A DNA stretch of 27,996 nt from a virus (taxonomy: Duplodnaviria > Caudoviricetes), in the IMG/VR virus record IMGVR_UViG_3300030372_002969, positions 1 through 27,996 of that record; one strand, given 5' to 3'. Positions 6,035 through 11,546 of the stretch are shown here, in pieces (within the stretch, counting starts at the first letter, position 1; each line of letters begins with the position of its first letter). The notes under the pieces were generated by a model that saw nothing but the letters and a program-made list of their open reading frames with translations, made no database searches and had not been told where the DNA came from. The translations under genes and the position numbers were made by a program.

Positions 6035-6307
6035 TCATTCTTTCCACGTCAACCAATCTTCATTCGGATGCGTCAGCAGCCGCCGATAGTCCTTCCCGCT
6101 GTGCGTGCGGCGCGCCGGAGCGATTGGCTGCTTGCGAGGCGGCAGTGCAAGGCGGTGCGCTTTGCCAAGCACGGCGTCGCGCGACCGGCGAGTGCCGGTG
6201 GTGTTTTTCATTTCGGCAGCGATCTGCGACGCGCTTTTGCCGTCCGCCCACAACTTCGTAAGCAGCAGCACCTCGGGCGCAGACCAAGGCTCGTCAAACC
6301 TCTGCAT
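6035..6307 (-). CDS. gcrA: GcrA-family cell-cycle regulator homolog, N-terminal domain only (90 aa)
   Basis: WSAPEVLLLTKLWADGKSASQIAAEM...RSRDAVLGKAHRLAL matches the GcrA N-terminal pattern (W..E.V..L..LW..G.SASQIA..L...RNAV.GK.HRL.L). Start moved to ATG 6307. Confidence 0.82.
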   Translation of the reverse strand: MQRFDEPWSAPEVLLLTKLWADGKSASQIAAEMKNTTGTRRSRDAVLGKAHRLALPPRKQPIAPARRTHSGKDYRRLLTHPNEDWLTWKE

Positions 6308-6503
6308 CAGCCACCTCGCCCCACCCGCCGCAGCGTTCGCACTCCGTCCAGCGGGTGCGGTAGCTCTGCCACGGGCCGTTATGGTCAACTCCACCGTGTG
6401 TGATTTCTTCCTCAACGCGGCCATGCCCCGCGCAATCCGGGCATTCAATAAATTTGCAATCCCTTTGCGGATGGCGCAGCAGACCGCAATCAGGGCACAT
6501 CAT
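6294..6503 (-). CDS. Small Zn-finger protein (DnaJ-type CxxCxGxG motifs)
   Basis: CPDC, CPDCAGHG, CERCGGWG; coupled to the upstream gene. Confidence 0.7.
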   Translation of the reverse strand: MMCPDCGLLRHPQRDCKFIECPDCAGHGRVEEEITHGGVDHNGPWQSYRTRWTECERCGGWGEVADAEV

Positions 6504-6820
6504 TGCTTCGCCTCACGCATGAGAGTCAGCAACGTTTCTTCACGCAGCACATACAAACGCGGCGCACGATCCTGGCGGACAACAAGAAGGTCGGCGTCGT
6601 CCTGCGCCAGCGCATCCATCAGCAACTTGAAGCCGCTTTTGCGGCGCTTGGCCTCGACCGACATGCCTTCGAGGCGAAGGTCGCCAGCGTAGTCATCGCC
6701 AAGCTGGCCCTTGTAAGCGCCGGAGCCAAACACGCGGGCGCAGTCAAAGCCGTGGGACTGCCAGAAATCGACAGTCTCTTTTTCAAGCTCATAGCCGCGT
6801 TGCTTGTTGCGGGCGCTCAA
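6500..6820 (-). CDS. Holliday-junction-resolvase-like PD-(D/E)XK nuclease (Hjc-like)
   Basis: NKQRGYELEKE, GSGA, GDL, VEAKRRK motifs. Confidence 0.75.
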   Translation of the reverse strand: MSARNKQRGYELEKETVDFWQSHGFDCARVFGSGAYKGQLGDDYAGDLRLEGMSVEAKRRKSGFKLLMDALAQDDADLLVVRQDRAPRLYVLREETLLTLMREAKQ

Positions 6821-7002
6821 CGTGCGAAATCAGCGACCGTCACTGCTCCACCCGTGGCGCGTTCGATCTTAGCTAATGTGTCAATTCCCGGTCGCTTCAC
6901 CCCTGCGCACATCATGCTGATGAACGCCGGAGTAACACCGACCATGGATGCGAATTCTGTCTGCGTGTAATTGTGGTCACGCAACCATTGGTTAAGTTTC
7001 AT
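6817..7002 (-). CDS. Cro-like XRE HTH regulator
   Basis: MKLNQWL...TQTEFASMVGVTPAFISMM..G.KRP...IERATGGAVTVADF; first gene of the early operon, divergent from the repressor. Confidence 0.85.
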   Translation of the reverse strand: MKLNQWLRDHNYTQTEFASMVGVTPAFISMMCAGVKRPGIDTLAKIERATGGAVTVADFAR

Positions 7003-7118
7003 AATTTGCGATTACGCAATCAAAAAATGAATGGCAAGCATGTTGTTGACTGGCGGTTACGTCAGGTGGCAGTGTGTCACTACAGGTCGGGAATAGTTTT
7101 TTTAGCGGGGAACCACAC
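6981..7118. promoter_or_regulatory. Divergent cI/cro switch region with candidate promoters and operators
   Basis: Minus-strand TTGCCA(7037-7032)-17 nt-TAATCG; plus-strand TTGACT at 7046; palindrome TTGCG-ATTA-CGCAA at 7006-7019; TTAAC-N5-G-like boxes at 6981-6995 and 7046-7060. Confidence 0.65.
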
Positions 7119-7421
7119 ATGACCATCGGCAATGCAATGCGGGCAGCGCGTAAGGCGTCCGACATGACGGCGGCCCAGGTAGCCGACAAAATTGGTCTGA
7201 AAGAGGCGACTTATCTGCGTTATGAGCGCGATGAGGTGTCGCCGCAAGCGCACGTTTGCGTCGCTTTAGCTGAAGCGTATGGCATCAGCCTCGACCAGCT
7301 TTTGCGCGGAATCGACACTGCCACAGACATGCCGCGACAGGTCATCAACTTTGATGTCACCGAAGGGCAGACTTTATCAGTTGAGATAAACGCTACCGTC
7401 AAGCACGGAAAAGCGTCTTAA
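7119..7421 (+). CDS. CI-like XRE repressor without an S24 peptidase domain (100 aa)
   Basis: IGNAMRAARKASDMTAAQVADKIGLKEATYLRYERDEVSP...LAEAYGISLDQLL is a classic XRE HTH; start at ATG 7119. Confidence 0.85.
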   Translation: MTIGNAMRAARKASDMTAAQVADKIGLKEATYLRYERDEVSPQAHVCVALAEAYGISLDQLLRGIDTATDMPRQVINFDVTEGQTLSVEINATVKHGKAS

Positions 7422-7672: not shown

Positions 7673-7766
7673 CTGGATCACCGGACTGCTACTTGCTGCG
7701 TTTCTGCTGCTGTTGCTGCACGCCGCATGCTTTGTCGGCGGCTTTTGCGCTGGCGGTGCACTATGA
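7662..7766 (+). CDS. 34-aa single-TM peptide (MINSWITGLLLAAFLLLLLHAACFVGGFCAGGAL)
   Basis: Hand translation; GAGGGGG upstream; exactly fills the gap between neighbours and ends in an ATGA overlap with the next gene. Confidence 0.6.
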   Translation: MINSWITGLLLAAFLLLLLHAACFVGGFCAGGAL

Positions 7767-7945
7767 GCGTATATGCCAATCTTACGGAAGCTGCACAATA
7801 TCTGTTCGGCGAACCCACTGATGCCAACATGCGGACGATCAGAAAAATGATCCGCACTGGACATTTGCGTGCGCTTGATAATGGCGTACGCCGAACATGG
7901 GTGCGATGGGACGATCTTAGAAAGTTTGGTGACGATGATGACTGA
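7763..7945 (+). CDS. Excisionase-like (HTH_17/MerR-type) DNA-binding protein
   Basis: NLTEAAQYLFG...RTIRKMIRTGHLRA...RRTWVRWDDL; start at ATG 7763 (ATGA overlap). Confidence 0.72.
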   Translation: MSVYANLTEAAQYLFGEPTDANMRTIRKMIRTGHLRALDNGVRRTWVRWDDLRKFGDDDD

Positions 7946-8836: not shown

Positions 8837-9400
8837 CTAGTCGAGGCGCTCCGGTTTGCCTTCCGCTGTGTTCAAGATGTGAATCACGTCAGCCAGGTCG
8901 CGCAGTTCTTGCATGTCAAGAATTGCGTCGATTCGATCAAAGTAAAGCCCTAGGCTCTGCTCGGTCAGCAGCAAGTCCTCATCTAAGAAGTCACCCGCCA
9001 AACCAGTTTTGACCAGCTTTGCCACGAACGGTTGAGAAACGGCAAGATCGTCTTGTAGCTCACTTTTGGTAAGGCTTTCTTGAGCAAATGTCTTCCACGC
9101 TAGATGCAGAAAAACGGTAATCATCGTATCGTTTGCGTACCAAAACTGATGAGCAGCGCTTGGCGCTTGGCCGTCGCGCACCAAACGCTCGGCCTCGCGT
9201 CGATGCAGTTGCACATTGCTGATAAATTTCGCCCAACGCACTTGCGCTGTTCGACGCATCGTTTGTCGCGCTCTGCGGCGGTCTATCGCCAGTTCGTCAA
9301 GATCAACATTACCCAAACGCGTTTTCTTTTTCTTGCCAACGTGTTTTGCGCTCTGTGGATTAGTTTTTTTCTTTCTCGCCATTTTTTCGTCCTCCGTCAT
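8837..9400 (-). CDS. Probable winged-HTH DNA-binding protein, translationally coupled to the integrase
   Basis: ATGA overlap with the integrase stop; Lys-rich N-terminus; LTKSELQDDLAVSQPFVAKLVKTGL resembles a MarR-type HTH. Confidence 0.55.
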   Translation of the reverse strand: MTEDEKMARKKKTNPQSAKHVGKKKKTRLGNVDLDELAIDRRRARQTMRRTAQVRWAKFISNVQLHRREAERLVRDGQAPSAAHQFWYANDTMITVFLHLAWKTFAQESLTKSELQDDLAVSQPFVAKLVKTGLAGDFLDEDLLLTEQSLGLYFDRIDAILDMQELRDLADVIHILNTAEGKPERLD

Positions 9401-10686
9401 AACTGCAACCCACCCGATGCAATCTGCTGCATAACCGGCGGCTGTTGCAATTCGCCCGACGCCTGTAGTTCCTCATAGGTGCGCGCATATTGCTTTCTTG
9501 TGAAGTCCGTCGATTCGTGGCCCATTAAGTCTGCCAGCGTGTGCCACTCGTCGCCGAACTGTATAAGCAGCAGTGTTGCATAGTAGTGGCGAAAATCATC
9601 AAGGCAGATTGCATTGAATGTTCTGTTCGCAGGATCGACGCCTTCGTTGTATTCGGCGCGGAAATTTTCTTCAAAGTCCTTCCAATACTCACCGCGCACA
9701 TGATCGGTGCCGTTTTGGGGTTCTCCGTCTTTCAACGGAAACACATAATCATCACCTTGTGAGTAGGGAGACGCTAGCTTCCACGACAACAACAGGTCAT
9801 GTAACTCGGGAACAATCGGAATTTTGCGAACGCGCTTCGGCAACGTGCCATCAGACTTGACGTTTTTGACCTCTTGGGTGTCCCAATATATGTCGTCGTT
9901 GTCATCGAGGCATGGTCTGCGTGTGAAAATGATATGAACATATTTCTGGTCTAATTTGCAGTTACGCCACGACAGACCGAGTGCTTCTGCTGGCTGAACA
10001 CCAGTATATGCATAGAACGCAATCAGGATGCCGTAACACCAATCAAATCTCTCGACTGCTGCATCCACAAGCGCACGGACATAGCTGCGGTCGTAGATGT
10101 ATTTTTTTACCTCGGCCTCGACCTCTGCTTGAGTGCGTTTGTGCTTCCGCGCTTTGATCGTGATCGCCGCAGCGGGGTTTGCGACAAAGGCACCTTCGGC
10201 AACGGCCTTTCTGCAAATTCGGTTGAACGTGCCTTTTGCAGCGCGGCGCACGCTTATGCCGTACGCTCCCCATTTGCTGTCGAATCTTTCTGCGACAAGC
10301 GTTTGCGAACCTTCTGCAAAAAAATGCTCCGCCGTCCAATCGCCATAAATTTCGGTGAGCCAATCGCAAAAGCGCATTTCGCGCTTATAATAACGGGCGC
10401 TCACCGCACCACGTTTTAGGTCGCGTTTATAGTCTTTTCGATACGCTGGCACGAAGTCAGCGAAACTGGGCAACGTGGCGTGTCTGCCGCTACGGATCGT
10501 TGGCGCTGGTGTGGCGGAATTGTTGAGACGTTCAAGCTGCAACAGAGCTTCAGTCGGCGGGTGTTCGGTGTCCCCAGGCCAAGTCTTTAAAACTTTCTGT
10601 TTGCTGTTTTCGTGTTTCACCAGCGTCCATTTCTGCACGTTGCCGGTTCGATGCTGGCGATTCCATTTCGCTAGGCGATAAGTCAT
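9397..10686 (-). CDS. int: Tyrosine recombinase/integrase with an atypical active site
   Basis: NPAAAI linker, YTGVQPAEALGLSW (box I), RKIPI, YVFP, DDFRHYYATLL and LMGH...T...Y (box II); SD GGAG; adjacent to a tRNA and arm-type repeats. Confidence 0.88.
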   Translation of the reverse strand: MTYRLAKWNRQHRTGNVQKWTLVKHENSKQKVLKTWPGDTEHPPTEALLQLERLNNSATPAPTIRSGRHATLPSFADFVPAYRKDYKRDLKRGAVSARYYKREMRFCDWLTEIYGDWTAEHFFAEGSQTLVAERFDSKWGAYGISVRRAAKGTFNRICRKAVAEGAFVANPAAAITIKARKHKRTQAEVEAEVKKYIYDRSYVRALVDAAVERFDWCYGILIAFYAYTGVQPAEALGLSWRNCKLDQKYVHIIFTRRPCLDDNDDIYWDTQEVKNVKSDGTLPKRVRKIPIVPELHDLLLSWKLASPYSQGDDYVFPLKDGEPQNGTDHVRGEYWKDFEENFRAEYNEGVDPANRTFNAICLDDFRHYYATLLLIQFGDEWHTLADLMGHESTDFTRKQYARTYEELQASGELQQPPVMQQIASGGLQL

Positions 10687-10843
10687 GATGTCTCCGTTGG
10701 TTAACTGCCAGACAACTTATAGTAAACCAACGGTTAAGGCTTTGCACAAAAAAAAGCGCCCGCGGCATAGGCGCGGCATATGCCGCGGCATGAAAACGAC
10801 TATTTCTATGCCGCAAAAGCCTTACGAGGTATTTAGAACGCAT

Positions 10844-10876
10844 AAAAAAAACGCCTTAACCGATTGGTAAGGCGTT
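10844..10876 (-). terminator. Rho-independent terminator downstream of the tRNA
   Basis: AACGCCTTA (10850-10858) / TAAGGCGTT (10868-10876) stem ending in a U8 run on the minus strand. Confidence 0.8.
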
Positions 10877-10893: not shown

Positions 10894-10971
<78 letters not shown>

Positions 10972-10997: not shown

Positions 10998-11088
10998 CTG
11001 TGGCGACCTCAAATGTTTGACTACCTTACAGTTGTCAATGACCTACAGGTACTGTGGCGACCTCGAGGTTGTCAAGCGACCTCTACTT
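10998..11088. repeat. Degenerate tandem array of five 17-19 bp units upstream of the tRNA
   Basis: ACCT-NN-AGGT-like 10-mers begin at 11006, 11023, 11041, 11060, 11079; CTGTGGCGACCTC is exact at 10998 and 11052; GTTGTCAA at 11031 and 11068. Confidence 0.7.
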
Positions 11089-11099
11089 CATGCCGCGCT

Positions 11100-11546
11100 T
11101 TATGCCGCGCTCGTAAGGCTCGGGTCCAAAACACACCGCGTTGACGCCTGCCACGACCTTGACTCAGCAGCAACCTTAAAAGCGTCGCGCGCTGCACGCC
11201 GCAAAGTTTTTTTGCCCGCGATCTGGTCTGCGGACATAAAAAAAGCGCGCCGGGCATCGAGCCCGACGCAAGCTAAAATTTCATATTCATCTGGATCAAC
11301 GCCGCGCTTTGCATAGCCAGCGCCAAGTGACCATTGATACGACAGACTTCCTTTGTGCAGCCTTGCACCTTCCGTCGTTTTGACTTGAATCCGCAGCAGC
11401 CGATCCTGCCTTGTGGCTATCAAATCATAAGGCGCATTGGCGACAAACGTCGCGTGCCAGCCAAGTTCTGTAATTATGGCAGCAGCAAGGTATTCGCCAA
11501 CACGCCCGATCTGCACCTGATTTCGTTTTAGTACGACCACACCCAC
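11100..11546 (-). CDS. Free-standing PD-(D/E)XK endonuclease (PDDEXK_5 / homing-endonuclease-like)
   Basis: IGRVGEYLAAA...PYDLI...LRIQVKTT catalytic pattern; exact start uncertain. Confidence 0.75.
   Translation of the reverse strand: MGVVVLKRNQVQIGRVGEYLAAAIITELGWHATFVANAPYDLIATRQDRLLRIQVKTTEGARLHKGSLSYQWSLGAGYAKRGVDPDEYEILACVGLDARRAFFMSADQIAGKKTLRRAARDAFKVAAESRSWQASTRCVLDPSLTSAA

Follow-up and report, generated by a model that had tools for sequence, protein, structure and literature searches.

A marine phage integrase without the first catalytic arginine: candidate relocation to the loop after the catalytic lysine

IntDOT lacks the first catalytic arginine of the tyrosine recombinases (Arg-I) and uses an alternative arginine instead (PMC8138268), which sits at the end of the first β-strand (bioRxiv 10.1101/542381). 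For Cre, the account in PMC2943603 describes only lysine and histidine as active at the Arg-I position, histidine robustly so, and reports that aspartate or glutamate in place of the box II histidine (His-II) abolishes recombination; it gives this histidine of the HxxR motif a moderate conservation of 87%. MrpR is presented in PMC10516654 as a dead recombinase turned repressor in which four of seven catalytic residues are lost. Integrases without Arg-I are usually taken to be dead, and the phages that encode them to be non-integrating. A literature search covering mostly open papers returned no account of the integrase clade described below or of an arginine at the position we call Arg285; the sequence logos in the appendix of PMC8138268 may bear on this, and the accessible part of PMC2817482 holds nothing on arginine relocation.

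The integrase studied here lies in a window of 27,996 nucleotides, which is the whole of the viral contig IMGVR_UViG_3300030372_002969 and has an estimated completeness of 82%; ‘marine’ refers to the origin of the sequencing runs that contain it. The window encodes portal, capsid, tail adaptor, holin, endolysin, Sak4, RusA-like and methyltransferase genes, and its capsid protein shares 38-45% identity with counterparts from phages of Bradyrhizobium, Myxococcus (Mx8/Mx9) and Ruegeria. It also carries a GNAT/ABC-like protein (1404-2498) and a GcrA-like helix-turn-helix (HTH) gene (6035-6448). The integrase gene occupies 9397..10686 on the minus strand as an open frame of 429 codons for a three-domain tyrosine integrase, with a PF00589 score of 29.8 bits against a cut-off of 27.1 and a match to phrog_1 at E 1.6e-25. 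PF00589 is its sole profile match at E up to 0.01, and an Arm-DNA-bind_5/SAM_5 N-terminus is absent. A first structure model built from four near-identical sequences was unusable (pLDDT 46.5); the model used here has a pLDDT of 87.2 and predicts arm-binding (residues ~1-58), core-binding (~72-190) and catalytic (~196-429) domains. Its best match among solved folds is Tn1549 Int (Z 22.8, rmsd 3.4, 298 aligned), and the match to lambda Int (Z 17.7-18.0) begins at residue 3, within a modelled three-stranded arm-binding domain (strands 2-12, 15-26 and 29-37, helix 45-58). A hairpin insertion at 254-272 in the model contains R256 and R257. Sequence searches of solved structures with the integrase or a shallow profile gave chance ribosomal matches only.

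Two catalytic positions of this protein are altered. An earlier note on this DNA had placed glutamine at Arg-I and aspartate at His-II, and both assignments hold in pairwise alignments and in a multiple alignment of 139 rows (A6), made up of 16 clade rows (7 Gln, 8 His and 1 gap at Arg-I) and 123 others (121 Arg, 2 Ser). Gln231 (CAG 9996-9994, minus strand; 9994..9996) lies in a box I that reads YTGVQPAE and aligns with the arginine of TGxRxxE; Asp363 (GAT 9600-9598, minus strand; 9598..9600) lies in a box II that reads CLDDFRH and aligns with the histidine of HxLRH, a position held by His in 103 of the 123 outgroup rows. The remainder of the active site that the note had listed as retained is indeed present: Arg366, G389-H390 and the nucleophile Tyr400 are in place, together with Arg402 (9481..9591, minus strand), and R366, H390 and Y400 are kept in 15/15 full-length clade rows. 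The frame is open, and the att-like repeats and a xis-like gene are likewise there, as the note had it.

The same note observed that each change is one nucleotide from a canonical codon, which is correct for both codons and is the point in favour of a recent knockout or a sequencing error, but the distance does not mark a recent change. Among 20 close homologs (83-93% identity, some of them near-duplicates), Gln231 is found in all 20, and 19 have Asp at residue 363, the other one Glu. The two codons are identical in 8/8 related loci with dS up to 0.25, and contigs from the runs of two other studies show no differing letter at them (X3 record 11 covers the Q231 codon, X4 record 17 both). Purifying selection acts on the catalytic domain, where pairs at dS 0.19-0.25 show dN/dS of 0.07-0.13; the ratio is 0.61, from 9 changes, in one pair of near-identical sequences, and evolution is much faster over the first 70 residues of the integrase (0.3-1.7). 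Three relatives (P0004, P0018, P0173) have in-frame internal deletions of 24-39 residues, either assembly artefacts or true variants.

A full HMMER search at E up to 1e-30 gave two matches, one close relative and P0021, the first member of a sister lineage at 36% identity; word-indexed protein searches had given 3, 5 and 18 matches only. In P0021 and its relatives the Arg-I position is His and the His-II position is Ile. Their loci and the window have a common phage backbone (endolysin 92%, Sak4 94-100%, RusA 92-93%) in the same gene order, their catalytic domains have dN/dS of 0.06-0.16, and Glu234, Lys277, Arg366, His390 and Tyr400 are invariant in both lineages in all rows covering them. 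Because this lineage, distant in sequence and with a common backbone, is also without both residues, Arg-I and His-II were lost long ago. Clade-wide fixation, selection and the sister lineage leave the recently inactivated module that the note had offered without support, and we rejected recent knockout and sequencing error alike, giving them next to no weight.

If the protein is active, another residue would have to stand in for Arg-I, and the alignment points to Arg285 (9832..9834, minus strand) in the KRVR segment. Its column lies two residues before the invariant strand arginine Arg287, and the model puts Arg285 in the loop between strand 287-290 and Lys277 (9856..9858, minus strand), the likely catalytic lysine (Lys in 16/16 clade and 122/123 outgroup rows; a smaller alignment places Lys274 there as an alternative register). 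All 17 rows lacking Arg-I have Arg at the Arg285 column, and the 121 canonical rows have mostly Gly, Ser or Ala (48, 37 and 17 rows), with Lys in 7 and Arg in 3. In an unbiased scan of all 561 columns after realignment this column ranked first, with Arg in 1/116 canonical rows against 23/121 for the next best, and it was the only column common to the three Arg-I-less lineages yet rare elsewhere. The association with Arg-I loss has a Fisher p of 6e-5 with three units counted.

A tree of 42 of the A6 rows over 194 columns, weak at its deep nodes, joins the Gln and His rows in one clade (UFBoot 100), pairs P0069 with the canonical P0080 (100) and pairs P0028 with the canonical P0034 (70). These canonical sisters, P0080 and P0034, have Ser and Ala at the Arg285 site, so that the exchange of Arg-I for Arg285 appears, from the sequences, to have arisen in about three separate lineages. 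In four relatives of P0069 added later, Arg-I is replaced throughout (Ser, Ser, Ser, Ala), and the new arginine and His-II are both present; the same 3′ half of tRNA-fMet lies upstream in three of them. Upstream of a P0028 relative at 97% identity there is a complete tRNA-Met. Outside A6 there were 34 shorter matches, of which two were unreadable, P0129 was ambiguous and 0/31 others had Arg at the site. P0129, a distant integrase in which Ser stands at Arg-I and a KKRR run follows the lysine, has Lys at the Arg285 site when aligned and Arg only when residues are counted from the lysine; it is possibly a further case of the swap.

The His-II position can be read in a similar way. Where the His-II residue in A6 is Lys or Arg, an acid stands two places after the nucleophile in 3/4 rows, against 5/103 rows with His (p 0.001; numbers small, one mis-registered row excluded from the count); where it is Asp or Glu, in 7 rows of one lineage, Arg always stands two places after the tyrosine. 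This charge pairing between the two positions therefore suggests an Asp363-Arg402 ion pair. A bolder proposal is that the relocated arginine and the carboxylate of Asp/Glu363, acting as direct general base for Tyr400, make up a new catalytic set, which we consider doubtful; just as doubtfully, boxes I and II would have been freed for such chemistry by the arginine move, which recurs in at least three lineages of marine phages. With Asp, Glu or Ile at this position, the clade offers a natural test of the role of His-II.

The sequence upstream of the integrase gene has the layout of an attachment site. A full-length tRNA-fMet copy (10895..10971, minus strand) would form an attP-like core. Two of its anticodon-stem bases (10928-10929) differ from 12/12 matching cellular copies and weaken the stem; the same bases make the stem match three GAGGTCGC repeats in the left arm (10998..11083, minus strand), which may be sites for an accessory protein. 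The right arm (10762..10814, no strand assigned) contains five copies of a 7-base repeat and the left arm two direct copies of it (11090..11108, minus strand), putative arm-type integrase sites; the seven copies fall within 520 bp around the core, against 0.19 expected from the remaining contig. Positions 10857..10869 (minus strand), one mismatch from the consensus, are presumably an IHF-like site, present in 6/7 loci examined across both lineages. Here and below we take the terms attR, IHF site and arm-type site from lambda biology. A sigma-70-like promoter was sought at the tRNA-fMet copy and none was found. A PD-(D/E)XK nuclease gene adjoins the att region (11100-11546).

The core with arm repeats on either side recurs in 7/7 loci examined. 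The whole tRNA copy is found in the window type, and the 3′ half only in L004, L018 and the sister lineage. At matching offsets, locus L004 (4583-4924) carries a different repeat, in six copies, together with a different integrase N-terminal domain; a third repeat is present six times in the sister lineage, and L043, whose integrase N-terminus is different again, has a fourth variant. These offsets are thus occupied by at least four or five arm-repeat sequences (L004 4583-4924; L040, L041 and L043; L059 4447-4697), which track the N-terminal domain. These pairs of arm domain and arm site are a natural specificity series on one tRNA-fMet target. The same core is also found in unrelated viral contigs beside canonical tyrosine integrases (L010, L012) and large serine recombinases (L013, L014). 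Six of the 12 matching cellular tRNA records, four of them titled Rhodospirillaceae MAGs, share three more upstream bases with the phage, which is a lead to the host only.

Besides the tRNA-fMet copy, the integrase gene is surrounded by a coupled gene, a xis-like gene and a CI/Cro pair. The 187-aa gene (8837..9400, minus strand) overlaps the integrase stop, is 80-100% identical in 8/8 close loci and probably encodes a winged-HTH protein, with MarR/IclR-like atlas neighbours as a lead only. A similar-looking gene follows the sister-lineage integrase; tblastn gave no match between the two genes at E 1e-3. The small xis-like HTH gene (7727..7945, plus strand) matches HTH_17 at E 0.05 only, and is 87-100% identical in 8/8 close loci and 30% identical in 5/5 sister-lineage loci. 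The Cro-like (6817-7002, minus strand) and CI-like (7074-7421, plus strand) genes are divergent, together span 6817..7421, match HTH_3 at E 2e-10 and 2.5e-13, respectively, and are kept as a pair in the sister-lineage loci.

We also looked for traces of integration in 46 genomes of the order of G001, in 27 of which the tRNA was matched. In G046, an 816-kb contig matches the tRNA end and right arm of both Gln-lineage types, at two places separated by 8 kb; these right arms are decayed (81% over 128 and 152 bp) and keep the arm repeats in part. The same genome contains a further element (L058, G046:C10:27059-27112) with an attR-like junction at this target: upstream of its tRNA-fMet 3′ half are repeats of its own, and the flank on the downstream side is of host type. 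Two of the 46 genomes contain the left arm of the sister lineage, and another gave a weak match of 26 bases. On a 65-kb contig of G019, this arm continues into the tRNA 3′ half (93% over 186 bp), beyond which the DNA is no longer that of a phage; the copy in G041 (87% over 254 bp) comes after transporter, isochorismatase and dehydrogenase genes. The G019 junction has the attR layout, but it could be an assembly chimera, because a scaffold gap immediately precedes it and a 52-base tRNA piece is shared. These chromosomal arm pieces fit past integration and do not single out the enzyme responsible. No integrase gene lay near them in the stretches fetched from G019, G041 and G046. Searches for an integrated copy of the integrase gene gave none in genome_contigs with the protein or the arm pattern, 0/5 in a set of five genomes, one weak match among the 46 genomes and 2/401 matches class-wide, both canonical integrases. 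A check of the contigs of eight runs for att junctions returned none; the phage contigs end inside the tRNA, which makes this negative result uninformative.

Taken together, we consider it probable that this is an active lambda-type integrase whose first arginine has moved to the loop after the catalytic lysine. Arg285, appearing where canonical relatives have Gly, Ser or Ala, would take over the job of the missing Arg-I; the shorter Gln (His, Ser or Ala in relatives) would leave room for it to reach the scissile phosphate. Asp363 would be neutralised by Arg402 and have no His-II-like action. The N-terminal domain would bind the arm repeats, and the enzyme would recombine attP with the tRNA-fMet gene of its host, a presumed marine alphaproteobacterium, with the crossover probably at the anticodon loop. 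Against this stand the low confidence of the modelled loop 271-290 (pLDDT 62-79), the account of Cre, in which Asp or Glu at His-II is inactive and nothing but Lys and His is described as active at Arg-I, and the lack of an integrated gene copy among the genomes searched.

This last point would also suit a catalytically dead protein that persists at the att region as a regulator binding DNA or as an architectural factor, as in MrpR or SroF and as the earlier note had suggested. The altered catalytic positions, one of them carrying a residue that inactivates Cre (PMC2943603), also favour such a protein, and MrpR, as far as PMC10516654 describes it, shows that the route exists with Lys and Tyr kept. 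According to the same source, though, MrpR lost Arg-I, His-II, Arg-II and His-III and is without an arm-binding domain, whereas the window integrase has a predicted arm domain and invariant Arg-II and His-III. The phage already has a CI/Cro pair, and the fold matches to YopR and SroF (Z 11-12) are far below that to Tn1549 Int. Loss of function would also leave unexplained both the repeated gain of the same arginine and the arm DNA at tRNA ends in bacterial assemblies, and we regard it as unlikely. A protein that merely organises the recombination complex, with a host or helper recombinase cutting the strands, would accommodate intact att sites and the chromosomal arm pieces without appeal to an altered active site, and the integrases at L010 and L012 do use the same tRNA core. 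It does not account for the selection on Tyr400, His390 and Arg366 or for the gain of Arg285, and the phage records hold no second recombinase (one tyrosine recombinase and zero PF00239 serine recombinases in each of 5/5 records, two of them 92% and 100% complete); this arrangement is very improbable.

Activity with compensation by a residue other than Arg285 is a further alternative, the candidates being Lys274, Lys284 or Arg256, the last at the end of the first strand. The earlier note, in proposing a rewired active site, had named arginines of both the TRR and the KRVR segments, and it is the KRVR part that stands, with Arg285 covarying with Arg-I loss. R256, K274 and K284 are invariant in 16/16 Gln/His clade rows, R256 occurs in only 11/123 outgroup rows, and in that clade it occupies the place of the IntDOT substitute as located in bioRxiv 10.1101/542381. 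However, the two independent Ser lineages carry Val and Asn at 256, and the TRR arginines R256/R257 sit in the Tn1549-type hairpin, show no covariation across lineages and have a Tn1549 counterpart that contacts the backbone of the binding-site DNA (PMC5871717, as far as consulted). R256/R257 and K274 had been our first candidates and were dropped after the covariation and column-scan results; we now hold compensation by any residue of this group to be improbable.

Should Arg285 be the substitute, it would define a second, repeatedly used route for arginine relocation besides that of IntDOT. It would also supply a rule for rescuing annotations, namely a small or polar residue in box I together with an arginine two before the strand arginine.

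Comparison with described systems places the window integrase, most likely, near lambda Int in its working, while it fails two motif features of the family (Arg-I and His-II). With lambda Int it shares arm-binding, core-binding and catalytic domains, arm repeats flanking a core, an IHF-like site and a xis-like gene; it differs in the two replaced residues, the 254-272 hairpin and the use of a tRNA-fMet copy as core. The Tn1549/Tn916-type integrases provide the closest solved fold and the β-hairpin insertion, but Tn1549 Int retains both R225 and H344, carries Gly where the window integrase has Arg285, and is a transposase of low target specificity. MrpR (YopR) and SroF of SPbeta-like phages resemble it, in the parts of their descriptions available, in having a tyrosine-recombinase fold without Arg-I and His-II and with Lys and Tyr kept; they lack Arg-II, His-III and an arm domain, are not known to recombine DNA and are not tied to attP, whereas the window integrase keeps five catalytic residues. 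The IntDes subgroup of Desulfovibrio, as partly described, likewise combines a shifted or replaced Arg-I with a change at His-II, there to Tyr. IntDOT and IntCTnDOT of Bacteroidota conjugative transposons, on the portions of the literature cited above, are alike in that Arg-I is gone and a downstream arginine has its role, a role that for the window integrase is our inference. The window integrase differs in that its putative substitute follows the catalytic lysine, in being also without His-II and in being a tRNA-targeting phage enzyme; given this phage context and its different N-terminus, it is not a member of the IntCTnDOT group.
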